Shown piece after piece: positions 2,912 through 44,511 of a DNA stretch of 64,000 nt. Under the pieces are notes generated by a model. It worked only from the letters and a program-made list of their open reading frames with translations. It was not told the origin of the DNA and made no database searches. The position numbers were made by a program, and so were the translations under genes. The stretch comes from a phage, in the sequence record PZ347775.1; one strand, given 5' to 3'. Numbering within the stretch: the stretch's first letter is position 1; each line of letters opens with the position of its first letter.

Positions 2912-4136
<1,225 letters not shown>

Positions 4137-17928: not shown

Positions 17929-20900
17929 ATGGCCGAGATTAAAAGAAAGTTCAGAGCAGAAGATGGTCTGGACGCAGGTGGCGATAAAATAATCAACGTA
18001 GCTTTAGCTGATCGTACCGTAGGAACTGACGGTGTTAACGTTGATTACCTAATTCAAGAAAACACAGTTCAACAATATGATCCAACTCGTGGATATTTAA
18101 AAGATTTTGTAATCATTTATGATAACCGCTTTTGGGCTGCTATAAATGATATTCCAAAACCGGCAGGAACTTTTAATAGTGGACGCTGGAGAGCATTGCG
18201 TACTGATGCTAACTGGATCACAGTTTCATCTGGTTCATATCAATTAAAATCTGGTGAAGCTATTTCAGTTAACACTGCAGCTGGTAATGATATCACATTT
18301 ACTTTACCATCTACTCCAATTGATGGTGATACTATCGTTCTCCAAGACATTGGAGGAAAACCTGGAGTTAACCAAGTTTTAATTGTAGCTCCAGTGCAAA
18401 GTATTGTAAACTTCAGAGGTCAGCAAGTACGTTCAGTACTAATGACTCATCCAAAGTCGCAGTTAGTTTTAATTTTTAGCAATCGTCTGTGGCAAATGTA
18501 TGTGGCTGATTATAGTAGAGAAGCTGTAGTTGTAACACCAGCGAATACTTATCAAGCGCAATCCAACGATTTTATCGTACGTAGATTTACTTCTGCTGCA
18601 CCGATTAATATTAAACTTCCGAGATTTGCTAATCACGGCGATATTATTAATTTCGTCGATTTGGATAAATTAAACCCTCTTTATCATACAATTGTTACTA
18701 CATACGATGAAACGACATCAGTACAAGAAGATGGAACTCATTCCATTGAAGGCCGTACATCTATTGATGGTTTCTTGATGTATGATGATAATGAAAAATT
18801 GTGGAGATTGTTTGACGGGGATAGTAAAGCACGTTTACGTATCATAACAACTAATTCAAACATTCGTCCAAATGAAGAAGTTATGGTATTTGGTGCGAAT
18901 AATGGAACAACCCAAACAATTGAACTTCAGCTTCCAACTAATATTTCTGTTGGTGATACTGTCAAAATTTCCATGAATTACATGCGAAAAGGACAAACAG
19001 TTAAAATCAAAGCTGCAGGTGAAGATAAAATTGCTTCTTCAGTTCAATTGCTGCAATTCCCAAAACGTTCAGAATATCCACCTGAAGCTGAATGGGTGAC
19101 TGTTCAAGAATTAGTTTTTAACGGTGAAACTAATTATGTTCCAGTTTTACAACTTGCTTATATAGAAGATTCTGACGGAAAATACTGGGTTGTACAGCAA
19201 AACGTTCCAACTGTTGAAAGAGTTGATTCTTTAAATGATTCTACTAGAGCAAGATTAGGCGTAATTGCTTTAGCTACACAAGCTCAAGCTAATGTCGATT
19301 TAGAAAATTCTCCACAAAAAGAATTAGCAATTACTCCAGAAACATTAGCTAACCGTACTGCTACAGAAACTCGTAGAGGTATCGCAAGAATAGCAACTAC
19401 TGCTCAAGTGAATCAGAACACTACATTCTCTTTTGCTGACGATATTATCATCACTCCTAAAAAGCTGAATGAAAGAACTGCTACAGAAACTCGTAGAGGT
19501 GTTGCTGAAATTGCTACGCAGCAGGAAACTAATGCAGGTACTGATGATACTACAATCATCACTCCTAAAAAGCTTCAAGCTCGTCAAGGTTCTGAATCAT
19601 TATCTGGTATTGTAACCTTTGTATCTACCGCAGGAGCTACTCCAGCTTCTAGCCGTGAATTAAATGGTACAAATGTTTACAATAAAAACACTAATAATTT
19701 AGTTGTTTCGCCTAAAGCTTTGGATCAGTATAAAGCTACTCCAACACAACAAGGTGCAGTAATTTTAGCAGTTGAAAGCGAAGTAATTGCTGGACAGAGT
19801 CAAGAAGGATGGGCAAATGCTGTTGTAACGCCAGAAACGTTACATAAAAAGACATCAACTGATGCAAGAATTGGTTTAATTGAAATTGCTACACAAAGTG
19901 AAGTTAATACAGGAACTGATTATACTCGTGCAGTCACTCCTAAAACTTTAAATGACCGTATAGCAACTGAAAGTTTAAGTGGTATAGCTGAAATTGCTAC
20001 GCAAGTTGAATTCGACGCAGGCGTCGACGATACTCGTATCTCTACACCATTAAAAATTAAAACCAGATTTAATAGTACTGATCGTACTTCTGTTGTTGCT
20101 CTATCTGGATTAGTTGAATCAGGAACTCTCTGGGACCATTATACCCTTAATATTCTTGAAGCAAATGAGACACAGCGTGGTACACTTCGTGTAGCTACAC
20201 AAGTTGAAGCTGCTGCAGGAACATTGGATAATGTTTTAATAACTCCTAAAAAGCTTTTAGGTACTAAATCTACCGAATCGCAGGAAGGTGTTATTAAAGT
20301 TGCAACTCAGTCTGAAACTGTAACTGGAACGTCAGCAAATACTGCTGTATCTCCAAAAAATTTAAAATGGATTGTGCAGAGTGAACCTACTTGGGCAGCT
20401 ACTACTGCGATAAGAGGTTTTGTTAAAACTTCATCCGGTTCAATTACATTCGTTGGTAATGATACAGCTGGTTCTACGCAGGACTTAGAGCTATACGAGA
20501 AAAATAGCTATGCAGTATCACCGTACGAATTAAACCGTGTATTAGCAAATTATTTGCCGTTAAAAGCAAAAGCCGCTGACGCGAATTTATTAGATGGTCT
20601 AGATTCATCTCAGTTCATTCGTAGGGATATTGCGCAGACGGTTAATGGTTCACTAACCTTAACCCAACAAACGAATCTGAGTGCCCCTCTTGTATCATCT
20701 AGTACTGCTACGTTTGGTGGATCAGTTTCGGCAAATAGTACATTAACTATTTCTAATACTGGAACGGCAACTCGTCTGATTTTTGAGAAAGGACCTCAAA
20801 CTGGAACTAACCCAGTACAGACGATGACTATCAGAGTTTGGGGAAATCAGTTTGGTGGCGGTTCAGATACAACACGTTCTACTGTATTTGAAGTTGGTGA

Positions 20901-21798
20901 TGAAACGTCTAATCACTTTTATTCTCAACGTAATAAAGCTGGGAATATAACGTTTAGTATCAATGGTACTGTGATGCCAATAAATGTTAATGCTTCGGGT
21001 TCTTTGAATGCGAACGGCGTTGCAACATTTGGTAGTTCAGTTACAGCCAATGGTGAATTCATCAGCAAGTCTGCAAATGCTTTCAGAGCAATAAATGGCG
21101 ACTATGGATTCTTTATTCGCAATGATGCTGCTAACACCTATTTTATGCTTACTGCATCGGGTGATCAGACTGGTGGATTTAATGGATTACGTCCTTTATC
21201 TATTAATAATGCATCTGGTCAAGTAACGATTGGTGAAAGCTTAATCATTGCCAAAGGTGCTACTATAAATTCAGGTGGTTTAACTGTTAACTCGAGAATT
21301 CGTTCTCAGGGCACTAAAACTGCTGACCTATACACCCGTGCGCCAACATCTGATACTGTAGGATTCTGGTCAATTGACATTAATGATTCAGCTACTTATA
21401 ACCAGTTCCCAGGTTATTTTAAAATGGTTGAAAAAACTAATGAAGTGACTGGACTTCCATACTTAGAACGTGGAGAAGAGGTTAAATCTCCTGGTACATT
21501 GACTCAATTTGGTAACACACTTGATTCGCTTTACCAAGATTGGATTACTTATCCAACGACTCCAGAAGCGCGTACCACTCGCTGGACACGTACATGGCAG
21601 AAAACCAAAAACTCTTGGTCAAGTTTTGTTCAGGTATTTGACGGAGGTAACCCTCCACAACCATCTGATATTGGTGCTTTACCATCTGATAATGCTACAA
21701 TGGGGAATCTTACTATTCGTGATTTCTTACGAATTGGTAATGTTCGCATTATTCCTGACCCAGTGAATAAAACGGTTAAATTTGAATGGGTTGAATAA
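17929..21798 (+). CDS. 34: long tail fiber proximal subunit gp34
   Basis: 1289 aa; repetitive beta-rich fiber sequence; first gene of late plus-strand fiber module. Confidence 0.9.
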   Translation: MAEIKRKFRAEDGLDAGGDKIINVALADRTVGTDGVNVDYLIQENTVQQYDPTRGYLKDFVIIYDNRFWAAINDIPKPAGTFNSGRWRALRTDANWITVSSGSYQLKSGEAISVNTAAGNDITFTLPSTPIDGDTIVLQDIGGKPGVNQVLIVAPVQSIVNFRGQQVRSVLMTHPKSQLVLIFSNRLWQMYVADYSREAVVVTPANTYQAQSNDFIVRRFTSAAPINIKLPRFANHGDIINFVDLDKLNPLYHTIVTTYDETTSVQEDGTHSIEGRTSIDGFLMYDDNEKLWRLFDGDSKARLRIITTNSNIRPNEEVMVFGANNGTTQTIELQLPTNISVGDTVKISMNYMRKGQTVKIKAAGEDKIASSVQLLQFPKRSEYPPEAEWVTVQELVFNGETNYVPVLQLAYIEDSDGKYWVVQQNVPTVERVDSLNDSTRARLGVIALATQAQANVDLENSPQKELAITPETLANRTATETRRGIARIATTAQVNQNTTFSFADDIIITPKKLNERTATETRRGVAEIATQQETNAGTDDTTIITPKKLQARQGSESLSGIVTFVSTAGATPASSRELNGTNVYNKNTNNLVVSPKALDQYKATPTQQGAVILAVESEVIAGQSQEGWANAVVTPETLHKKTSTDARIGLIEIATQSEVNTGTDYTRAVTPKTLNDRIATESLSGIAEIATQVEFDAGVDDTRISTPLKIKTRFNSTDRTSVVALSGLVESGTLWDHYTLNILEANETQRGTLRVATQVEAAAGTLDNVLITPKKLLGTKSTESQEGVIKVATQSETVTGTSANTAVSPKNLKWIVQSEPTWAATTAIRGFVKTSSGSITFVGNDTAGSTQDLELYEKNSYAVSPYELNRVLANYLPLKAKAADANLLDGLDSSQFIRRDIAQTVNGSLTLTQQTNLSAPLVSSSTATFGGSVSANSTLTISNTGTATRLIFEKGPQTGTNPVQTMTIRVWGNQFGGGSDTTRSTVFEVGDETSNHFYSQRNKAGNITFSINGTVMPINVNASGSLNANGVATFGSSVTANGEFISKSANAFRAINGDYGFFIRNDAANTYFMLTASGDQTGGFNGLRPLSINNASGQVTIGESLIIAKGATINSGGLTVNSRIRSQGTKTADLYTRAPTSDTVGFWSIDINDSATYNQFPGYFKMVEKTNEVTGLPYLERGEEVKSPGTLTQFGNTLDSLYQDWITYPTTPEARTTRWTRTWQKTKNSWSSFVQVFDGGNPPQPSDIGALPSDNATMGNLTIRDFLRIGNVRIIPDPVNKTVKFEWVE
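19351..20260 (+). repeat. in-frame periodic repeats inside gene 34
   Basis: Exact 24-nt actgctacagaaactcgtagaggt at about 19357 and 19477; exact 20-nt atcatcactcctaaaaagct at about 19446 and 19556; protein motif TP.KL..R.ATE..RG.A.IATQ recurs about 7 times. Confidence 0.7.
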
Positions 21799-21806
21799 GA
21801 GGTATT

Positions 21807-22922
21807 ATGGAAAAATTTATGGCAGAGTTTGGACAAGGATATGTCCAAACGCCATTTTTATCGGAAAGTAATTCAGTAAGATACAAAATAAGTATAGCGG
21901 GTTCTTGCCCGCTTTCTACTGCAGGACCACACGTTAAATTTCAGGATAATCCTGTCGGAAATCAAACATTTAATGCAGGTCTTCATCTAAGAGTTTTTGA
22001 CCCTTCCACAGGAGCATTAGTTGATAGTAAGTCATATGCTTTTTCTACTTCAAACGATACTACATCGGCTGCTTTTGTTAGTTTCATGAATTCTTTGACG
22101 AATAACAGACTTGTTGCTATATTAACTAGCGGAAAGGTTAATTTTCCTCCTGAAGTAGTATCTTGGTTAAGAACCGCAGGAACGTCTGCTTTTCCATCTG
22201 ATTCTATATTGTCAAGATTTGACGTATCATATGCTGCCTTTTATACTTCTTCTAAAAGAGCTATTGCATTAGAGCATGTTAAACTGAGTAACAGAAAAAG
22301 CACAGATGACTATCAAACTATTTTAGATGTTGTATTTGACAGTTTAGAAGACGTTGGAGCTACGGGATTTCCTAAAAGAACATACGAAAGCGTTGAGCAA
22401 TTTATGTCAGCAGTCGGTGGAACTAATAACGAAATTGCACGTCTACCAACTTCAGCTGCCATAAGTAAATTATCTGACTATAATTTAATTCCTGGCGATG
22501 TTCTTTATCTCAAAGCACAGTTATATGCTGATGCCGATTTACTTGCGCTTGGAACCACAAATATATCCATCCGTTTTTATAATGCATCTAATGGATATAT
22601 TTCTTCAACACAAGCTGAGTTCACCGGACAAGCTGGGTCTTGGGAATTAAAGGAAGATTATGTAGTTGTTCCAGAAAACGCTGTGGGATTTACGATATAC
22701 GCACAAAGAACTGCACAAGCTGGTCAAGGTGGCATGAGAAATTTAAGCTTTTCTGAAGTGTCAAGAAATGGAGGTATTTCGAAACCTGCTGAATTTGGCG
22801 TCAATGGCATTCGTGTTAATTATATCTGTGAATCTGCTTCACCTCCGGATATAATGGTACTTCCTACGCAAGCATCGTCTAAAACTGGTAAAGTGTTTGG
22901 GCAAGAATTTAGAGAAGTTTAA
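21807..22922 (+). CDS. 35: long tail fiber hinge protein gp35
   Basis: 371 aa; GAGG SD; position between 34 and 36. Confidence 0.85.
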   Translation: MEKFMAEFGQGYVQTPFLSESNSVRYKISIAGSCPLSTAGPHVKFQDNPVGNQTFNAGLHLRVFDPSTGALVDSKSYAFSTSNDTTSAAFVSFMNSLTNNRLVAILTSGKVNFPPEVVSWLRTAGTSAFPSDSILSRFDVSYAAFYTSSKRAIALEHVKLSNRKSTDDYQTILDVVFDSLEDVGATGFPKRTYESVEQFMSAVGGTNNEIARLPTSAAISKLSDYNLIPGDVLYLKAQLYADADLLALGTTNISIRFYNASNGYISSTQAEFTGQAGSWELKEDYVVVPENAVGFTIYAQRTAQAGQGGMRNLSFSEVSRNGGISKPAEFGVNGIRVNYICESASPPDIMVLPTQASSKTGKVFGQEFREV

Positions 22923-22927
22923 ACTGA

Positions 22928-22950
22928 GGGAGCCTTCGGGTTCCCCTTTT
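22928..22950 (+). terminator. rho-independent terminator after gene 35
   Basis: gggagcc-UUCG-gguuccc hairpin followed by cttttcttt. Confidence 0.6.
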
Positions 22951-22953
22951 CTT

Positions 22954-22961
22954 TATAAATA
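22954..22961 (+). promoter_or_regulatory. late promoter TATAAATA for gene 36
   Basis: Exact TATAAATA 24 nt upstream of gene 36 ATG. Confidence 0.6.
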
Positions 22962-22984
22962 CTATTAAAATAAAGGGGCATACA

Positions 22985-23650
22985 ATGGCTGATTTAAAAG
23001 TAGGTTCAACAACTGGAGGCTCTGTTATTTGGCATCAAGGAAATTTTCCATTGAATCCAGCCGGTGACGATGTACTCTATAAATCATTTAAAATATATTC
23101 AGAATATAATAAACCACAAGCTGCAGATAACGATTTCGTTTCTAAAGCTAATGGTGGTACTTATGCATCAAAGGTAACATTTAACGGCGGTGTTCAAGTC
23201 CCATATGCTGTAAACAACACAAACCCATGCGGTATTTATCCAGGTAATGGTGATAATGCTACTTTTGCTGTAACAAATATCGATATTGTTTCGTGGAATG
23301 GTATTGGTTTTAAATCATCACAAGGTTCAGCAGACCGAACTGTTGTAATTAATGCACGTAATGGTGATATTAGTACAAAAGGCATTGTGATAGCAGTAGG
23401 TCAAGTAAAAAGTAACGCAGCTGCTCCTATAGAAGCTCGTGATCTTACTAGAAAGGACTACGTCGATGGAGCAATAAATACTGTTACGGCAAATGCGAAC
23501 TCTAGAGTGTTACGATCTGGTGACACTATGATAGGTAACTTAACCGCACCAAACTTTTTCTCACAGAATCCCGCATCTCAACCTTCACATGTTCCACGAT
23601 TTGACCAAATCGTAATTAAGGATTCTGTTCAAGATTTCGGCTATTATTAA
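22985..23650 (+). CDS. 36: long tail fiber distal connector gp36
   Basis: 221 aa as T4 gp36; between 35 and 37. Confidence 0.85.
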
Positions 23651-23658
23651 GAGGACTT

Positions 23659-26600
23659 ATGGCTACTTTAAAACAAATACAATTTAAAAGAAGCAAAACC
23701 GCAGGTGCTCGTCCTGCTGCTTCAGTATTAGCCGAAGGTGAATTGGCTATAAACTTAAAAGATAGAACAATTTTTACTAAAGACGATTTAGGAAATATCA
23801 TTGATCTGGGTTTTGCTAAAGGCGGGCAAGTTGATGGAAATGTGACTATCAATGGTCTTTTGAAATTAAACGGCGATTATGTACAAACTGGTGGAATGAC
23901 CGTAAATGGACCTATTGGTTCTACTGAAGGCATAACTGCAAAAGTTTTCAGATCTACACAAGGTTCATTTTATACAAGAGCCTCAAATGATACTTCCAAT
24001 GCCCATCTTTGGTTTGAAAATGCCGATGGCATTGAACGAGGCGTTATATATGCTCGTCCTCAAACTACAACTGACGGTGAAATACGTCTTAGAGTTAGAC
24101 AAGGAACCGGAAGCACTATTAATAGCGAATTCTATTTCCGTTCTATAAACGGCGGTGAATTTCAAGCTAACCGTATTTTAGCATCAGATTCGTTAGTAAC
24201 TAAACGCATTGCGGTTGATACTGTTATTCACGATGCCAAAGCCTTTGGGCAATATGATTCTCAATCTTTGGTTAACTATGTTTATCCTGGAACCGGTGAA
24301 ACAAACGGTATAAACTATCTTCGTAAAGTTCGCGCTAAAGCTGCCGGAACCATGTGGCATGAAATCTGTACAGCTCAGACTGGCCAAGCAGATGAAATGT
24401 CTTGGTGGACGGGTAATACTCCATCATCTAAACAATATGGTATTCGTAACGACGGCCGAATGGCTGGGCGTAATAGCCTTGCATTAGGTACATTCACTGC
24501 AGATTTCCCGTCTAGTGATTATGGTAACGTCGGTGTAATGGGCGATAAGTATCTTGTTCTCGGTGACACTGTAACTGGCTTGTCATACAAAAAAACCGGT
24601 GTATTTGATCTAGTTGGCGGTGGATATTCTGTTGCTTCTATTACTCCTGACAGTTTCCGCAGTACACGTAAAGCATTATTTGGACGCTCAGAAGATCAAG
24701 GCACAACATGGATTATGCCTGGAACCAACGTTGCCTTTTTATCGGTTCAAACACAAGCTGATGGAAACACTGCTGGAGACGGCCAGACACATATTGGCTA
24801 TAACTCAGGCGGTAAAATGAACCACTATTTCCGTGGTAAAGGCAAAACTAATATTAATACTCAAGAAGGCATGGAAGTTAACCCGGGTATTCTTAAACTA
24901 GTAACCGGTGCTAACAGTATTAGCTTTAACGCTGCAACAGGTAATATTGATTCTACATTAGCTTTTCGTCTTAATAAAGGTATAATTATTGATGGACCTG
25001 ATAATCAGGGATTCCAATTTAATGCTCCGACGGCTGTAGATGGTACTAGAAGCATATACTGGAATAGTGGCACACGCTCAGGTCAAAACAAAAGCCCTGT
25101 TACAGTTAAAGTGTGGGGTAATTCATTTAACGCATCTGGTGATCGTAGTCGTGAAACCGTTTTTGAAGTAGCTGATGGGCAAGGTTATTATTTTTACGCT
25201 CAACGTACTAATCCTGCATCAGGTCAAACGGTAGGTCCGGTTAACTTTAAATTTAACGGAACTGTCGAAACAGGTCATATCATAGGCCTTGGAAATATAA
25301 GTGCCTCCGGTACAGGTTCTTTCGGTGGCAATGTTACTATGTCTAACGGTTTGTTTGTCCAAGGTGGTTCTTCTATTACCGGCCAAGTAAAAATTGGTGG
25401 AACTGCTAATGCATTAAGAATTTGGAATTCCGAATATGGCGCTATTTTCCGTCGTTCAGAAGCCAACTTCTATATTATTCCAACCAATCAAAATGAAGGC
25501 GAAAGCGGAGACATTCACAGCTCTTTGAGACCTGTGAGAATAGGATTAAACGATGGCATGGTTGGGTTAGGAAGAGATTCTTTTATAGTAGATCAAAATA
25601 ATGCTTTAACTACTATAAATAGTAACTCTCGCATTAATGCCAACTTTAGAATGCAATTAGGACAAAATGCTTATATAGATATTGAGGCTTCTGATGGAGT
25701 TCGCCCAACGGGTTGTGGTTCCTTTGCATCTCAGAACGATGTAAACGTAAGAGCTCCAATTTATATGAATATAGAGCGTACTGCTACTTCTGAATACATT
25801 CCTATTGTTAAACAACGGTATGTAAAGGGTGATAGTACTTATTCTATTGGTACCTTAATTGCCCAAGGAGACTTCCGTGTCCATTATCACCAAGGTACTA
25901 GTACTACCGGAACCGATATAAGTTGGGAATTCCGTCGTACCGGTGACTTCCGCACACCTGGTAAAATTATTGCCGGTGCTGCTACTCTTGGTACTGATGG
26001 TAATATTACTGGTGGTTCTGGTAATTTTGCTAACTTAAACAGTACGATTGAATCACTTAAAACTGATATTGTTTCAAGTTATCCTATTGGAGCTCCGATT
26101 CCTTGGCCTACTGATACACCTCCTGAAGGTTATGCCATAATGGAAGGTCAAACATTTGATGTTGGCTTGTATCCTAAGTTAGCTGCGGTGTATCCTTCCG
26201 GCTCTCTGCCTGATATGCGCGGGCAAACTATCAAGGGTAAACCAAGTGGTCGTGATGTTTTGAGCGCAGAAGAAGATGGTGTTAAGGCTCATAGCCATAG
26301 TGCATCGGCTTCAAGTACTGACTTAGGTACTAAAACCACATCAAGTTTTGATTACGGTAGCAAAACGACTTCAAGCTTTGATTATGGTACTAAGACCAGT
26401 AATAATACTGGTGCTCATACGCATAGTTTGAGCGGTTCCACAAACACCGCCGGTGCGCACAGCCACACAAGCGCTCTTTATGCGGGCGATAGAGACTCTC
26501 CTGGTGGTAGTTCTGCAAGAGGATCCGCCGGTGGTGGTAATACGCTTGGAACTTCTTCTTCTGGGGCACATTCGCACTCTATATCTGGTACTGCTGCAAG

Positions 26601-26781
26601 CGCAGGCGCTCACGCACATACTGTTGGTATTGGTGCTCATACCCATACAGTTGGTATTGGTGCTCACACCCATTCAGTAGCAATTGGTTCACATGGGCAT
26701 ACAATAACTGTAAATAGTACAGGTAATACAGAAAACACGGTTAAAAACATTGCTTTTAACTATATCGTTCGTTTAGCATAA
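23659..26781 (+). CDS. 37: long tail fiber distal subunit gp37 (receptor-binding tip at C-terminus)
   Basis: 1040 aa; C-terminal His-rich HxH repeats and ...[11 protein letters not shown] end typical of T4-type gp37. Confidence 0.9.
26326..26403 (+). repeat. 30-nt in-frame tandem repeat (about 2.6 copies) in gp37 tip
   Basis: Period-30 repeat encoding [10 protein letters not shown] / [10 protein letters not shown] / GTKTSN. Confidence 0.7.
26620..26700 (+). repeat. 27-nt in-frame tandem repeat x3 (His-rich) in gp37 tip
   Basis: Encodes TVGIGAHTH / TVGIGAHTH / SVAIGSHGH. Confidence 0.7.
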
Positions 26782-26802
26782 GGAGAGGGGCTTCGGCCCC
26801 TT
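26781..26802 (+). promoter_or_regulatory. gene 38 split ribosome-binding site (SD + UUCG hairpin)
   Basis: AGGAG at 26781 then aggggc-UUCG-gcccct hairpin, AUG at 26809 (23-nt SD-AUG distance shortened by folding). Confidence 0.55.
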
Positions 26803-26808
26803 CTAAAT

Positions 26809-27360
26809 ATGAAAATATATCATTATTATTTTGACACTAAAGAATTTTACAAAGAAGAAAATTACAAACCGGTTAAAGGCCTCGGTCTTCCTGCTCATTC
26901 AACAATTAAAAAACCTTTAGAACCTAAAGAAGGATACGCAGTTGTATTTGATGAACGTATTCAGGATTGGATTTATGAAGAAGACCATCGCGGTAAACGG
27001 GCTTGGACTTTTAATAAAGAAGAAATCTTAATAACTGACATAGGAAGCCCGGTTGGTATAACTTTTGATGAACCCGGCGAATTTGATATATGGACTGATG
27101 ATGGTTGGAAAGAAGACGAAACATATAAACGCGTTTTAATTCGTAATAGAAAAATTGAAGAATTATATAAAGAATTCCAAGTATTGAATAATATGATCGA
27201 AGCTTCAGTTGCAAATAAAAAGGAAAAATTCTATTATCAAAACCTTAAACGGTTCTTTGCTCTTTTAGAAAAGCATGAGCATTTAGGTGGTGAATTTCCT
27301 AAATGGCCTGAAAAAGAATGGAAGCCTTGGTATAAGCGTTTATTCAGGAATTACGTATAA
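26809..27360 (+). CDS. 38: tail fiber assembly chaperone gp38
   Basis: 183 aa; immediately downstream of gp37. Confidence 0.8.
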   Translation: MKIYHYYFDTKEFYKEENYKPVKGLGLPAHSTIKKPLEPKEGYAVVFDERIQDWIYEEDHRGKRAWTFNKEEILITDIGSPVGITFDEPGEFDIWTDDGWKEDETYKRVLIRNRKIEELYKEFQVLNNMIEASVANKKEKFYYQNLKRFFALLEKHEHLGGEFPKWPEKEWKPWYKRLFRNYV

Positions 27361-27363
27361 ATA
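27356..27363 (+). promoter_or_regulatory. late promoter TATAAATA for holin t
   Basis: Exact TATAAATA overlapping gene 38 stop, 19 nt upstream of t ATG with AAGGAGG SD. Confidence 0.6.
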
Positions 27364-27381
27364 TCCTTAAAAGGAGGGTCT

Positions 27382-28038
27382 ATGGCAGCACCTAGAATAT
27401 CATTTTCGCCCTCTGATATTCTGTTGGGTGTTCTAGATCGCTTGTTCAAAGATAACGCTACCGGGAAAGTTCTTGCTTCCCGGGTAGCTGTCGTAATTCT
27501 TTTGTTTATAATGGCGATTGTTTGGTATAGGGGAGATAGTTTCTTTGAGTACTATAAGCAATCAAAGTATGAAACATACAGTGAAATTATTGAAAAGGAA
27601 AGAAATGCACGCTTTGAATCTGTCGCCCTGGAACAACTCCAGATAGTTCATATATCATCTGAGGCAGACTTTAGTGCGGTGTATTCTTTCCGCCCTAAAA
27701 ACTTAAACTATTTTGTTGATATTATAGCATATGAAGGAAAATTACCTTCAACAATAAGTGAAAAATCACTTGGAGGATATCCTGTTGATAAAACTATGGA
27801 TGAATACACAGTTCATTTAAATGGACGTCATTATTATTCCAACTCAAAATTTGCTTTTTTACCAACTAAAAAGCCTACTCCCGAAATAAATTACATGTAC
27901 AGTTGTCCATATTTTAATTTGGATAATATCTATGCTGGAACAATAACCATGTACTGGTATAGAAATGATCATATAAGTAATGACCGCCTTGAATCAATAT
28001 GTTCTCAGGCGGCCAGAATATTAGGAAGGGCTAAATAA
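27382..28038 (+). CDS. t: holin
   Basis: 218 aa; single N-terminal TM segment (VAVVILLFIMAIVWY) plus large periplasmic domain, T4 T-holin architecture. Confidence 0.85.
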   Translation: MAAPRISFSPSDILLGVLDRLFKDNATGKVLASRVAVVILLFIMAIVWYRGDSFFEYYKQSKYETYSEIIEKERNARFESVALEQLQIVHISSEADFSAVYSFRPKNLNYFVDIIAYEGKLPSTISEKSLGGYPVDKTMDEYTVHLNGRHYYSNSKFAFLPTKKPTPEINYMYSCPYFNLDNIYAGTITMYWYRNDHISNDRLESICSQAARILGRAK

Positions 28039-31004: not shown

Positions 31005-32329
31005 TTGATTTCCTCTAAATCTTTGGTGTATTCTGTAACTACATCAGTAGTTTTCCAATATTCGTTTTCTTCTTTCTTAGCTTTAGCTTCTTCAGCAAGT
31101 TTCTTTGCTTCATCAGAAGTCATATGAAAAATATTCATTCCGACTAGTTTATCAACATAAGAAGAATACATATCAATTTTAGAAAGTTCTTCGGTCAGTT
31201 CTTTGCGAGTTTTACCTTGCACAACAATTTCACCTGAAATTACTTTCTTAATGAAATGTGCCTTGGCAAAGGCTAAACGAAATGCTGATTCAGTTTCTTT
31301 GATTTTGTTATCAATTCGCTTTTGGACATAAGTTTTACGAACTTCAACAAAGTCTTTAATTAAATCAACTACGTTATCGTAAACTTGTAGCTTTCCTTTC
31401 TCATTAATAACAGTAATATTCTGGGAACGACGCTCAATCAACCCGAAGTCTTTCATGATTTTTGCATGGCGTTCTTCTTCGTTATCGCTCAAAGAATATT
31501 CTTTACGGAATTTAACTTTAAAGCCAAAGCCATGCTCACCACAAGCATCATCCCATGTAATGAAGCCTTTATCTTCAAGCGGGTCTAAGATTTTACTCAC
31601 ATAAGTTTCACGATCATACTTATACGGAATCTCAGTGATATTCATTTGAGTTCGTGAAGTAAACTTGTACGTTCCACGAATTTCATATTGACCGTCAATT
31701 TCAACGACTTCACCACGAAATTCTGGGAATTCTACCTTCGGTTTAGTTACTTTCTTTCCTTGAAGAGCTTGTAATACAGCTTTCTTAACAGAAGAAACGC
31801 TATGAGGAAGAATGTAAGTTGCATAACCAGTTGCAATACCGGAAACACCATTAAGAAGAACAGTAGGAATAATAGGCAAATAGAAAGCAGGAGGAATGTG
31901 TTCTTTATCTTGATGTACCGGAGCATATTCAGTATCTTTATATACACTATAGAAATTTTTACTTACACGAGCAAAAATATAACGACTTGCTGCTGCTTTT
32001 TGGACAGTACGAGAACCAAAGTTTCCTTGACCATCTAACAAAGGAAAGTTATTATTCCAAGTATTAGCCATCAAAGCCCCCGCGTCTTGCGCAGAGTTTT
32101 CACCATGATGATATCCAAGGTCAGCTACACCACCTGCAATAGAAGCGAGTTTGTGAAACTTATCTTTATTTCCTCGCGCCAAATCAAGAGCTCGAGCAAT
32201 AACAAATCGTTGGACTGGCTTAAATCCATCAATCATATTTGGAATAGCACGATTTTCAACCGTGTACATAGCATAAGCCAATGCTTCATTATCAATGATA
32301 CTTTTTAAATCGCGATTATTCAGTTGCAT
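31001..32329 (-). CDS. 52: DNA topoisomerase II medium subunit gp52 (GyrA-like cleavage domain)
   Basis: 442 aa; GyrA/ParC-like N-terminal cleavage core. Confidence 0.95.
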   Translation of the reverse strand: MQLNNRDLKSIIDNEALAYAMYTVENRAIPNMIDGFKPVQRFVIARALDLARGNKDKFHKLASIAGGVADLGYHHGENSAQDAGALMANTWNNNFPLLDGQGNFGSRTVQKAAASRYIFARVSKNFYSVYKDTEYAPVHQDKEHIPPAFYLPIIPTVLLNGVSGIATGYATYILPHSVSSVKKAVLQALQGKKVTKPKVEFPEFRGEVVEIDGQYEIRGTYKFTSRTQMNITEIPYKYDRETYVSKILDPLEDKGFITWDDACGEHGFGFKVKFRKEYSLSDNEEERHAKIMKDFGLIERRSQNITVINEKGKLQVYDNVVDLIKDFVEVRKTYVQKRIDNKIKETESAFRLAFAKAHFIKKVISGEIVVQGKTRKELTEELSKIDMYSSYVDKLVGMNIFHMTSDEAKKLAEEAKAKKEENEYWKTTDVVTEYTKDLEEIK

Positions 32330-38911: not shown

Positions 38912-38941
38912 ATTATACCACATCCTTGTGGTAAAGTAAAC
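38912..38941 (-). promoter_or_regulatory. sigma70 early promoter (GTTTAC -35, TATAAT -10)
   Basis: Reverse complement GTTTAC-18nt-TATAAT; -35 overlaps gene 39 stop; ccaca/tgtgg stem in spacer. Confidence 0.55.
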
Positions 38942-40758
38942 TATTGGCTCATCCATTCTTTACGAAGGTCAGCATTATCTCCCATAAGCATTTCAAAAAG
39001 CTCTTTCCAGTTCTCAGGAAGTTTAACAACATCATATACTGGATTTTGAATCATCTCACGATATTCAGATTTTTCCAAAGAGCCAAGTCCTTTAATATAA
39101 CGGATGCTATGTTTAGGTAGAGCATCTTTGGCACTCTCATATTCAGCGACTGTATAAAACCATTCTTGTTTTTTACCGACCTGAGCGATGATTACAGGAG
39201 TTTTGACAAAGCGAATTCTTCCTTGTTCAAACAGTTCTGGCCAATTACTAAAAAATCCGAGCAGAGAAGGATAAATGCTTCCTAGACCATCATGGTCAGC
39301 GTCAGTCATAATGGCAATATTGTGATAATTCAAGTTTTCGGCTTTTTCACCAAGAACTAATCCAGTGATTGCGCAAATATCAAACAGTTCTTTGTTTTTA
39401 AGCATATCAGCATAAGACATACCCCAACTGTTGAGAACTTTACCACGCAATGGATAACCACCATGAAGTTCTTTATCACGAACATCAATAAGATATCCGA
39501 TAGCAGAATCACCCTCAGTCAAGAAAAGAGTAGTATCAGCATCTTTACCGCAAAGATTCGCTTTAATATGTTTATGAACCTTAGCTTTAGAAGCCTTTTT
39601 AGCTGCTTTAGTTTCTGCTGCTTTTTCTGCCGCCAATTTACGAGCCAAAGCAGCTTCAATAATTGGCATTAAAATTGCTTCATTATTTAAAATAGCACGT
39701 GAAATCTTTTTAGCATCAAGCTGAATATGACTACGAATTTCACCAAATGGAGAAGTCAAACGCTCTTTAGTTTGAGAATCAAATCGCATGTTTTTCATAT
39801 CACGAACAAACATAACGATAGTCAAACATTCTTTAACACGTGCTTTAGTTACATCAATTTTGAACTTACGTTTGATTTGTGGAATAAGGTCTTCACAAAT
39901 ATCATCCATAACACAGTCAATGTGATGGCCACCATTCTTAGTATGAATGTTATTAACGTATGTTAATTGACGAAAACCGTCGGGTGAACGACCGACCGCA
40001 ATAGAACAGTTTTCCTGTTCTTGAACGATAGCATGCTCATCATATTGGCGTGCATATTTCTTAAAATTACCCTGAACCTTTTTACCGTTAAAGGTAAATT
40101 GAATATCAGGATAAACTACTGCAAGTGTCTGGAGACGATCTAGTGTAATGTCAAGATAAACTTGAGATAGCTCATTAGTTTCAAATGACATAAAATCAGG
40201 AATGAAAGTAACGCGAGTTCCTTTCCATTTTCCAGGAATATCTTCCCATGATTTATTTTCCATGCCATTTGAACAACGAACTACAATATTATTTTGACCA
40301 TCGCCAGTTTCACCGACAAACATCACAGAAAAAATGTTAGTTAAACTAGAACCAACACCGTTCATACCGCCAGTGACGCGTTCTTTGTCATCACCGAAGT
40401 TACCACCTGCTTTTGGAATAGTCCAGGCAGCAACAGGACCAGGAATTTCTTCACCAGTAGGTGTTTTAACCATCGCTTGTGGAATACCACGACCGTTATC
40501 TTCAACTGTTACTTGATTGTTTTTAATAGTAACATTAATTTTATTCGCGAATTTAAACTTAGTACGAATACCTTCATCTACTGAGTTATCGATAATTTCA
40601 TCAATAAGCTTAACAAGACCAGGTACATACTGAACACTTTCCCATTTACCAAACAGAAAGCGCTCATGCATTTCATTAGCAGAAGAACCAATGTACATGC
40701 CGCTACGCTTTTTGATATGTTCAATATCGCTCAGAATTTTAATTTCATTCTTAATCAT
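38941..40758 (-). CDS. 39: DNA topoisomerase II large subunit, uninterrupted (gp39 with gp60-equivalent C-terminus)
   Basis: 605 aa from MIKNEIK; GHKL ATPase motif VEDNGRGIP; C-terminal about 115 aa (IAIMTDADHDGLGSIYPSLL...) is the segment encoded by the separate gene 60 in T4. Confidence 0.95.
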   Translation of the reverse strand: MIKNEIKILSDIEHIKKRSGMYIGSSANEMHERFLFGKWESVQYVPGLVKLIDEIIDNSVDEGIRTKFKFANKINVTIKNNQVTVEDNGRGIPQAMVKTPTGEEIPGPVAAWTIPKAGGNFGDDKERVTGGMNGVGSSLTNIFSVMFVGETGDGQNNIVVRCSNGMENKSWEDIPGKWKGTRVTFIPDFMSFETNELSQVYLDITLDRLQTLAVVYPDIQFTFNGKKVQGNFKKYARQYDEHAIVQEQENCSIAVGRSPDGFRQLTYVNNIHTKNGGHHIDCVMDDICEDLIPQIKRKFKIDVTKARVKECLTIVMFVRDMKNMRFDSQTKERLTSPFGEIRSHIQLDAKKISRAILNNEAILMPIIEAALARKLAAEKAAETKAAKKASKAKVHKHIKANLCGKDADTTLFLTEGDSAIGYLIDVRDKELHGGYPLRGKVLNSWGMSYADMLKNKELFDICAITGLVLGEKAENLNYHNIAIMTDADHDGLGSIYPSLLGFFSNWPELFEQGRIRFVKTPVIIAQVGKKQEWFYTVAEYESAKDALPKHSIRYIKGLGSLEKSEYREMIQNPVYDVVKLPENWKELFEMLMGDNADLRKEWMSQ

Positions 40759-40785
40759 CACTTATCCTCGTTTGATTTCGGGAAT

Positions 40786-43827: not shown

Positions 43828-44511
43828 TTATCGTTTTGTTGGAAGGGATAGAGGATCGCAATCTTCCTCTGACGGAGCATCTTCAAGACCCATAGCATAT
43901 CGCAAAGCATACTTCATCATCAGGATGTCTTTCGCACAGTCATGAATAGAATCATGTGCAACGAATCCATCTAAAGTTCCCTTTGGAAGAGGACATGTGG
44001 TCATATCACGAACAAGCAAAAGTGCTTCAATTCTAGTACGAATATCACGTTGATTCCAGAATTTACATGGTTCTAACTTAAATGTATCAAGCTCATTCTC
44101 AGAAACGCCATTAAGACGTTGAATATCGCGAATGAGATCGACTAAAATTGGAAAATCAAACGACATTCCACGGCACCAGCCTTGAGATTTCCAAGGATCG
44201 ATGTTATGTGCATTGATGTAATCATTAAATTTTGCAATACCATCGATAGTGCTTACATCTTCATCTGATGGCGCAATATTTTTTCGAGCTTCAGGAGACT
44301 GATTTTTCCACCATTCGATAGTGCTTTTAGTAAAAAGACGATGTCCTTTTTGGCTTTTTAAATCAAACTTGATTTTAATGCCGCGTGAAACTAATTCATC
44401 AAAGGATTCAACTACTTCTGGGTTAGGGTCAAAGGCAATAACAGCTAAGTCAATAACAGCTGCTTTTTCACCGCTTCCCATTGTTTCAAAATCTATAATA
44501 AAATCAAACAT
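43828..44511 (-). CDS. dexA: exonuclease A (DnaQ-like 3'-5' exonuclease)
   Basis: 227 aa as T4 DexA; DEDDh-like N-terminal motif DFETMG. Confidence 0.8.
   Translation of the reverse strand: MFDFIIDFETMGSGEKAAVIDLAVIAFDPNPEVVESFDELVSRGIKIKFDLKSQKGHRLFTKSTIEWWKNQSPEARKNIAPSDEDVSTIDGIAKFNDYINAHNIDPWKSQGWCRGMSFDFPILVDLIRDIQRLNGVSENELDTFKLEPCKFWNQRDIRTRIEALLLVRDMTTCPLPKGTLDGFVAHDSIHDCAKDILMMKYALRYAMGLEDAPSEEDCDPLSLPTKR

Follow-up and report, generated by a model that had tools for sequence, protein, structure and literature searches.

Paired in-frame tandem repeats in the gp37 of a T4-type phage align with the two limbs of the receptor-binding needle stem

The window analysed here is a stretch of 64,000 nucleotides of phage DNA (sequence record PZ347775.1). 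The list of open reading frames and their translation place in it, on the plus strand at positions 23659-26781, gene 37, coding for the long tail fibre's distal subunit. Its product counts 1040 amino acids, compared with 1026 for T4 gp37, and the locus is 97.8% identical to that of phage ECO07P3 and approximately 92% identical to that of T4. The reading frame is flanked by homologues of T4 gp36 and gp38, with the T4T annotation of the syntenic genes as basis. Immediately downstream, gene 38 (26809-27360, plus strand) encodes a T4-type, Tfa-like tail-fibre assembly chaperone of 183 amino acids, which is 96% identical to T4 gp38 and matches PHROG 105 (tail fiber assembly) with an E-value of 4e-43. 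Homology and synteny thus bear out the identification of the gene as a T4-type gp37, which had been made in an initial annotation from the DNA letters and their reading frames. In the T2/T6 type of distal fibre, gp37 lacks the C-terminal needle and is capped by a gp38 adhesin of about 260 amino acids (PMC3157838); this type is ruled out here, gp38 being the 183-residue T4-type chaperone and gp37 carrying the full needle. Rfam and tRNA scans of the 64-kb window gave no matches.

The needle can be followed along the C-terminal part of gp37 (all coordinates on the plus strand). The N-terminal part of the collar domain (D10; residues 811-858, positions 26089-26232) aligns to the T4 structure 2XGF and is matched by Pfam PF07484 (Collar) with an E-value of 1.2e-10 and 41.6 bits, against a curated cut-off of 24. 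The first HxH motif, H878-S-H880 (26290-26298), stands at the base of the ascending limb and is aligned with H883/H885 of T4. The ascending inner rung (26401-26466) is made of HxH#2 (H920-H922), a 14-residue unit and HxH#3 (H934-H936); Pfam PF03335 (Phage_fiber), a 14-residue repeat, matches residues 915-928, and this unit was thus already modelled in Pfam. The tip subdomain, predicted to be the receptor-contact region from its alignment to residues 932-959 of the T4 tip, covers residues 937-970 (26467-26568), that is, the 34 residues between HxH#3 and HxH#4, and is a hypervariable block among relatives. The descending inner rung (26569-26619), with HxH#4 (H971-H973), a 14-residue unit and HxH#5 (H985-H987), mirrors the ascending 14-residue step in all homologues. 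The C-terminal return into the collar (26701-26778) has an invariant length across homologues, 29 residues past the last HxH. The HxH spacing in the window, 42, 14, 37 (from HxH#3 to HxH#4), 14, 9, 9 and 9 residues followed by the 29-residue tail, is that of a T4-type needle, and the needle histidine columns are invariant in an alignment of 69 sequences. An AlphaFold2 monomer model of the last 260 residues, based on a 69-sequence alignment, had a mean pLDDT of 56.7 and a pTM of 0.29, with only the collar confident.

The needle contains two in-frame tandem repeats. The first, a 30-nt array in the ascending stem limb (26326-26415, plus strand), encodes 10-residue units at residues 890-899 and 900-909 and a degenerate third at residues 910-919. 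TRF reported it at 26332-26389 with 1.9 copies, 85% matches and a score of 88. In the frame that starts at 26326, the first two units agree at 24 of 30 nucleotides, and unit 3 resembles the others in its first third only. The second, a 27-nt array on the descending limb (26620-26700, plus strand), encodes TVGIGAHTH (residues 988-996, HxH#6), TVGIGAHTH again (997-1005, HxH#7) and SVAIGSHGH (1006-1014, HxH#8). It was reported by TRF at 26608-26688 with 3.0 copies, 83% matches and a score of 85, and also with 2.6 copies, 86% matches and a score of 100. In frame from 26620, its units 1 and 2 are identical at 25 of 27 nucleotides, both differences being synonymous. None of 2000 codon shuffles of gene 37 reached 24/30 at a period of 30, nor 25/27 or 45/54 at a period of 27, the shuffle maxima being 23, 20 and 34, respectively. 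The two arrays are the top-scoring tandem repeats of the whole 64-kb window, in which the tandem-repeat scan found no other array comparable to them. TRF, translation and codon shuffles therefore confirm that the in-frame repeats of 30 and 27 nt described in the initial annotation are real.

The position of both arrays in the needle was deduced from the comparison with T4 gp37. The last 260 residues of the window gp37 match the chain of PDB 2XGF with a phmmer E-value of 9.8e-97 (query residues 134-393 to chain residues 2-242). Within the stem, the only gaps are one of 10 residues on the ascending limb and one of 9 residues on the descending limb, MAFFT being in agreement with HMMER. The T4 spacing is 32, 14, 37 (again from HxH#3 to HxH#4), 14, 9 and 9, so that the needle carries eight HxH motifs in the window versus seven in T4, the number of 9-residue steps being three (two in T4) and that of 10-residue units two and a half (one and a half in T4). 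The 27-nt array thus adds an HxH motif, as had been supposed. Each array has one unit more than in T4, and the repeat number is therefore not that of T4 gp37, an identity which the initial annotation had itself named as evidence against its reading. According to PMC6957217, D11 of T4 gp37 consists of a stem (residues 882-931 and 960-1009) and a tip (932-959), D10 includes residues 1010-1026, the needle contains seven Fe whose histidine ligands are described as structural, and the receptor contacts are residues on the tip surface. Both arrays of the window align to this stem. Their placement near the C-terminus of gp37 holds in the sequence, whereas their assignment, HxH motifs included, to a tip that binds metal and receptor is not supported.

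The same source gives G921-F970 and H929-G964 as contacts between the two limbs in T4, which imply an antiparallel register with i+j = 1891-1893. Relative to T4, the two indels are located at about 900/901 and 992/993 by MAFFT (sum 1893) and at 902/903 and 988/989 by HMMER (sum 1891). Both sums fit the T4 register and the two indels therefore lie opposite each other, an argument which presupposes that the register is constant along the stem and relies on gaps whose exact place within a repeat is ambiguous.

To relate the two limbs across the family, the first ascending HxH gap was compared with the number n of 9-residue HxH steps on the descending limb in 196 distinct complete homologous tails. 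The gap equals 12+10n residues (±1), with n from 1 to 6, and the tails are distributed in the classes (gap, n) as follows: (22,1) in three tails, (31-32,2) in 98, (41-42,3) in 84, (52,4) in eight, (62,5) in one and (73,6) in one. Unit numbers that differ between the two limbs occur in none of the 196 tails, and no class is off-diagonal. The inner 14-residue steps are symmetric as well (0/0 in 73 tails, 1/1 in 118 and 2/2 in three, plus one 12/12 case). The sole exceptions to the ladder, P0096 and P0019, have lost one histidine each, with lengths preserved. Since the sequences are related and the distance from one limb to the other is at most about 300 nt, part of this perfect association could reflect co-inheritance; the 11 outer/inner step combinations observed require a minimum of about 10 independent paired changes, far below 196. 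As the ascending unit has 10 residues and the descending one 9, the limbs are matched in units and not strictly equal in length. With no mismatched tail among the 196, it appears that a change confined to one array is not tolerated, and a change of copy number on one limb is, judging from these sequences, probably not viable. The change of copy number envisaged in the initial annotation is thus not free in this survey, in which the two arrays never differ in unit number. The form with eight HxH motifs is common and not special to this phage, being found in lambda Stf, GiZh, JQD51, F2, AV117, ECO07P2, ECO07P3 and others. The description of T4 as the minority form rests on 14 Straboviridae tails read directly, and the matches in IMG/VR and in the protein databases are mostly prophage Stf proteins, with fewer T4-like gp37.

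Taken together, these data lead us to propose, with a probability that we put at roughly 85%, that the gp37 needle stem consists of repeating rungs to which the two arrays contribute the matching halves, the repeats having a structural role and receptor specificity being located in the tip between them. As in T4, each of the three intertwined chains would leave the collar, run up the needle as the ascending limb, form the receptor-binding tip and come back as the descending limb, which would provide, in the part of the stem near the collar, an HxH pair every 9 residues; the two histidines from each of the three chains would form one octahedral metal (Fe) site. The ascending limb would provide there a 10-residue unit without histidines. 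With one step and one unit more than in T4, the needle of the window is predicted to be one rung longer, by about 2-3 nm, and to hold eight metal ions per trimer versus seven in T4. Since the limbs must stay in register, units would be gained or lost only in pairs. The mismatch between units of 10 and 9 residues could be accommodated if the ascending strand follows an outer, longer path. As a secondary role, the conserved repeat DNA may offer a patch of homology for swaps of needle modules between phages.

In another reading, close to the one initially given, the arrays would belong to the receptor-binding tip, the HxH motifs would take part in both metal and receptor binding, and independent slippage of each array would tune tip length and host range in the manner of a contingency locus. 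The difference in copy number from T4 is in agreement with it, and the first two units of the 27-nt array, identical at 25/27 nucleotides, are a possible substrate for slippage. Duplications in T4 gene 37 have also been reported to bring Yersinia into the host range (PMC7002106, citing Tetart et al. 1996); as cited there, they only show that repeat-mediated rearrangements in this place can matter. However, both arrays align to the T4 stem and not to the tip 932-959, the iron-binding histidines of T4 are structural in the description cited above, and unequal limbs occur in 0 of 196 distinct tails. Furthermore, the six closest phages (ECO07P2, ECO07P3, AV117, JQD51, GiZh and F2) share the copy numbers of the window, yet their tips differ. 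The free and independent variation in copy number of a contingency-type hypervariable repeat is thus not what these tails display. As far as location is concerned this reading is largely refuted, and overall we regard it as very unlikely.

The relatives also inform on the origin of the allele. The window is identical to ECO07P3 over 25755-26404, with the first difference at 26405, whereas the last upstream difference from AV117 and ECO07P2 lies near 26381 and a single nucleotide differs from AV117 over 26405-26808. From these difference positions, the gp37 allele reads as a mosaic, of ECO07P3 type up to 26404 and AV117-like from 26405, and the recombination junction between the ECO07P3-like backbone and the AV117/ECO07P2-like needle module is placed at 26383-26404 (plus strand), inside the 30-nt array. 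The right-hand junction falls at 26707 or further on, within the invariant 3' end. The whole combination of an ECO07P3-type shaft and collar with an AV117/ECO07P2-type needle is found in no single database record. At the apex of the tip, a patch (26487-26516, plus strand) differs by 11 nucleotides and 6 amino acids from JQD51, GiZh and F2, which have SNNSPGTGSI there, the flanks being identical. An exact-pattern scan of viral_contigs for this patch gave no match. It recurs in the GenBank phages ECO07P2 (100%) and AV117 (99%), and its ready-made presence in both points to recombination. An origin by a diversity-generating retroelement, whose substitutions would affect only the adenines of a template repeat, was rejected: besides changes of A, the differences from JQD51 comprise G>A, C>A, C>G and also T>C.

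A junction inside an array raises the case where the repeats would be kept mainly as DNA recombination linkers ('His boxes' or conserved motifs) for the exchange of tip cassettes between phages and prophages. The position of both junctions, the one within the 30-nt array and the other in the invariant 3' end, is in agreement with such a function, as is the occurrence of the needle family in Tequatrovirus, Mosigvirus, Gaprivervirus, lambda-like and P2-like phages. Earlier work describes exchange taking place at motifs that adhesins have in common (Tetart et al. 1996 and 1998, as cited in PMC3157838). The term 'His box' itself was not found in the papers listed by our literature search. What is conserved is nevertheless the amino-acid sequence, synonymous differences between phages being numerous, and the invariant histidines coordinate iron in the T4 structure (PMC6957217). 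The strict pairing of 10- and 9-residue units is also a constraint of protein geometry and not of DNA. As the main reason for the repeats, we consider a linker function very unlikely; it is best seen as a secondary role, compatible with the paired structural rungs proposed above.

Finally, it is hardly credible that the periodicity arises by chance or as an artefact of low complexity, or that it belongs to an overlapping gene in another frame or strand: Gly, Ser, Thr and His are abundant in the region, and two overlapping reading frames were mechanically listed (26371-26673, minus strand, 100 amino acids; 26453-26680, plus strand, 75 amino acids), but both ideas are refuted by the 0/2000 codon shuffles that reach the observed repeats, by the conservation of the gp37 frame, with its invariant His and Gly columns, in hundreds of homologues, and by the match of this frame with the solved structure 2XGF.

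Under the structural reading, the receptor-binding needle of the window gp37 is an ordinary one of T4 type, with the common length of eight HxH motifs, assembled by recombination from modules already present in databases; the arrays are a known kind of structure and the paired-rung rule is a modest by-product of the analysis. A wider proposal could be issued, which we hold to be doubtful: (i) the paired-rung rule may hold as a design constraint, so far unreported, throughout the gp37/Stf needle family; (ii) needle length may be tunable in iron-stapled rungs and set, by paired indels or module swaps, to the depth of the receptor under O-antigen or capsule; and (iii) the additional rung relative to T4 may be adaptive and not neutral. 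The practical bearing is on the engineering of tail fibres and the prediction of host range. It is the tip (residues 937-970, especially the patch 943-954), and not the repeats, that should be examined for specificity, and the length of the needle could probably be changed only by the paired gain or loss of one 10-residue ascending unit and one 9-residue descending HxH unit. Needle swaps among T4-like, lambda-like and P2-like phages have natural crossover points in the repeat DNA. Each extra rung would add one bound iron per fibre, with 48 predicted per virion versus 42 for six fibres, which bears on the proposal that phage tail fibres act as iron ligands (PMC11705849).

Among known systems, T4 gp37 (2XGF, residues 785-1026, with the D10 collar and the D11 stem and tip) resembles the window protein from end to end, in the collar, the 14- and 9-residue HxH spacing, the 37 residues from HxH#3 to HxH#4 and an identical C-terminal stretch of 26 residues. 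The window differs from it by the additional 10-residue ascending unit and 9-residue descending HxH unit, and by a tip sequence unrelated to that of T4, the tip being, in needles of T4 type, the part that binds OmpC and/or LPS. The gp37 proteins of the Escherichia phages AV117 (Mosigvirus), ECO07P2, ECO07P3, JQD51, GiZh and F2 have the same repeat numbers as the window, ECO07P3 differing by a 55-residue tip from another family. The T4 cases of Tetart et al. (1996, 1998), as they are cited, are similar in that the rearrangement passes through conserved repeats of short length near the C-terminal end of gene 37, a mode which the junction of the window fits; the difference is that the window presents a module swap and not a new duplication. 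The C-terminal part of phage lambda Stf, together with its prophage homologues, has the same ladder (42, 14, tip, 14, 9, 9, 9) with near-identical units, the same C-terminus and a tfa chaperone gene downstream, whereas its tip is longer and unrelated, with 48 residues between HxH#3 and HxH#4, and the needle is carried on another N-terminal fibre shaft in a siphovirus context.

The window derives from a T4-like phage genome of the Tequatrovirus type, in which six + strand ORFs over 17929-28038, of 1289, 371, 221, 1040, 183 and 218 aa, correspond one-to-one to T4 genes 34, 35, 36, 37, 38 and t (T4T annotation). Over 10 kb, this fibre locus shares 97.8% identity with the Escherichia phages ECO07P3 and ECO07P1, against about 92% with T4. 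Both tandem arrays are located in gene 37 (23659-26781, + strand), which encodes 1040 aa (1026 aa in the T4 counterpart). TRF placed the 30-nt array at 26332-26389 with a score of 88 and the 27-nt one at 26608-26688 with scores of 85-100; they are the top-ranked tandem repeats of the whole window. Three other short repeats were found at 4087-4126, 31081-31120 and 44432-44461, with periods of 21, 21 and 15, some 2 copies and scores of 53-57. Read in frame from 26326, the 30-nt array consists of three 10-aa units, the first two sharing 24 of 30 nt, and from 26620 the 27-nt array reads TVGIGAHTH, TVGIGAHTH and SVAIGSHGH, with 25 of 27 nt equal between units 1 and 2 and both changes synonymous. 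None of 2000 codon shuffles of gene 37 attained the observed unit-match values of either array. The arrays and coordinates of the initial annotation are thus confirmed.

The same annotation had placed both arrays in the receptor-binding tip, and the comparison with T4 contradicts this assignment. The last 260 aa of gp37 align end-to-end with the crystallised T4 gp37 fragment 2XGF (E 9.8e-97), and outside the variable tip only two gaps appear, both in T4, in agreement with MAFFT. The 10-aa gap faces one unit of the 30-nt array and the 9-aa gap one TVGIGAHTH, so that copy number differs from T4, with one unit more per array in the window. The spacing of the HxH (histidine-pair) motifs after the collar is 42, 14, 37 (the tip), 14, 9, 9, 9 in the window, giving eight motifs, and 32, 14, 37 (the tip), 14, 9, 9 in T4, giving seven. 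In T4, the collar D10 (residues 811-881 and 1010-1026) receives as an insertion the needle D11 (882-1009), in which residues 932-959 form the tip and 882-931 together with 960-1009 the stem, and the receptor contacts described are residues on the tip surface (PMC6957217). By alignment to this T4 stem, the 30-nt array lies on the ascending limb and the 27-nt array on the descending limb, with the predicted tip (aa 937-970) between them, so that both arrays are near the C-terminus in sequence yet outside the receptor-binding tip. The 27-nt array does add one HxH motif, as had been proposed, but in the stem. Seven iron atoms, whose ligands are histidines from three chains, are described along the T4 needle and called critical for folding (PMC6957217); a structural, metal-binding role is likewise predicted for the histidines of the arrays.

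The T4 contacts G921-F970 and H929-G964 (PMC6957217) give an antiparallel register with i+j = 1891-1893. MAFFT places the two indels against T4 at residues 900/901 and 992/993 (sum 1893), and HMMER at 902/903 and 988/989 (sum 1891). Assuming a constant register, and given the ambiguous placement of gaps inside repeats, the two extra units would lie opposite each other. Since the T4 needle measures about 150 Å by EM (PMC3004832), and each limb of the stem has roughly 50 residues, one such pair, or rung, would lengthen the needle by about 2-3 nm. An AlphaFold2 monomer model of the last 260 aa was poor (pLDDT 56.7).

Homologous C-terminal tails were collected from four sources, namely 120 proteins of a 90%-clustered protein database, 150 representatives at 50% identity, 80 viral contigs and 14 GenBank phages; 196 of the 211 distinct tails were complete and parseable, n being the number of 9-residue steps of the descending limb. 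Over these 196 tails the first ascending HxH gap equals 12+10n residues, ±1: it is 22 for n=1 (3 tails), 31-32 for n=2 (98 tails), 41-42 for n=3 (84 tails), 52 for n=4 (8 tails), 62 for n=5 and 73 for n=6 (one tail each). No mismatched class was found among the 196 distinct complete tails, which are non-independent, the limbs lying within about 300 nt and being co-inherited; outer and inner steps occur in 11 numerical combinations, which need roughly ten paired changes, with none surviving unpaired. The tip-adjacent 14-residue steps are also mirrored between limbs (0/0 in 73 tails, 1/1 in 118 and 2/2 in 3). Only two homologues, P0096 and P0019, are apparent exceptions to the ladder, each having lost a single histidine with lengths kept, and the long forms carry the expected count of FDY-type units (five in P0169). 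These data indicate that a rung is made, per chain, of one 10-aa ascending unit and one 9-aa descending HxH unit, and that a copy change on one limb alone is probably selected against. The ascending limb having one residue more per rung, its strand may take a longer, outer path. As a generalisation, this rule of paired rungs is useful. At the extremes of the needle family, P0225, P0231, P0255, P0169, P0214, P0045 and P0220 have one to six 9-aa rungs, some with the inner 14-aa rungs doubled on both limbs; P0220 is the sole parsed protein whose inner steps are both 12 (12/12), a compensatory length change.

The window matches ECO07P3 at every position over at least 25755-26404, then diverges fully until 26706. 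AV117 differs by one nt over 26405-26808 and ECO07P2 is identical over 26405-26654, their last upstream difference from the window lying near 26381. Because these differences end there and the ECO07P3 identity stops at 26404, the left crossover falls in 26383-26404, where the third 30-nt unit begins, and the right one in the invariant 3' end. From sequence comparison, gp37 is thus recombinant, ECO07P3-like up to 26404 and AV117-like (Mosigvirus) from 26405 to the gene 38 start, implying a needle module swapped across Tevenvirinae genera. The matched ladder was kept through the swap because n = 3 in both parents. Given the position of the left crossover, the repeats also serve as homology patches for needle swapping, in line with exchanges at conserved adhesin motifs reported earlier (as cited in PMC3157838).

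Specificity probably depends on another segment. The window needle differs from those of JQD51, GiZh and F2 solely by 11 nt (6 aa) in a tip apex patch at 26487-26516 (gp37 aa 943-954), where these phages have SNNSPGTGSI and the window another 10-aa stretch, between identical flanks of 143 nt on the 5' side and 292 nt on the 3' side. The same patch is present in ECO07P2 (identical; isolated on E. fergusonii) and AV117 (99%). It corresponds by position to T4 apex residues 938-949, which include residues shown to be critical for receptor binding (PMC6957217). Host range is probably determined by this patch, which resembles the outcome of micro-recombination or of strong diversifying selection.

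Between the gp37 stop and the gp38 ATG (26809), a hairpin rich in G+C and capped by a UUCG loop, GGGGCUUCGGCCCC, was observed at 26782-26811 (MFE -15.6 kcal/mol and z = -2.8 over 26776-26815). An AAGGAG Shine-Dalgarno-like sequence precedes it and the start codon follows it, these two being some 22 nt apart. The hairpin is unchanged between the window, ECO07P3, JQD51, GiZh and T4, and may act to bring the SD near the AUG and/or serve as terminator or stabiliser. Over the whole window (1-64000), ARAGORN found no tRNA gene and no Rfam family reached the gathering threshold. The topoisomerase II large subunit is a single unbroken ORF of 606 aa (38941-40761, - strand), with residues 2-474 99% identical to T4 gp39 and residues 493-606 sharing 100% identity with the portion of T4 gp60 that follows the bypass. 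Neither the gene 39/60 split of T4, nor its mobA homing-endonuclease insertion, nor its 50-nt translational bypass (T4T annotation) is therefore present in this phage.

In every respect accessible from sequence, gp37 matches the T4-type needle, by 2XGF homology, collar domain, HxH ladder and the downstream gp38-type chaperone, which shares 96% identity with T4 gp38. A T2/T6-type distal fibre was rejected, as that type carries a gp38 adhesin and the window a T4-type gp38 chaperone. The eight-HxH form is not unusual: the 42, 14, [tip], 14, 9, 9, 9 ladder is common to lambda Stf, GiZh, JQD51, F2, KMB23, SHBML-50-1, p000v (Mosigvirus), VR25 (Gaprivervirus), ECO07P2, ECO07P3 and AV117, and the Pfam model PF03335 'Phage tail fibre repeat' describes the 14-aa unit (match at aa 915-928). 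The gp37 of the window is a new mosaic allele whose repeats are a known, family-common structure. The shorter ladder is that of Citrobacter phage Moon and of T4, whose gp37 has one 10-aa ascending unit and one 9-aa HxH unit fewer.
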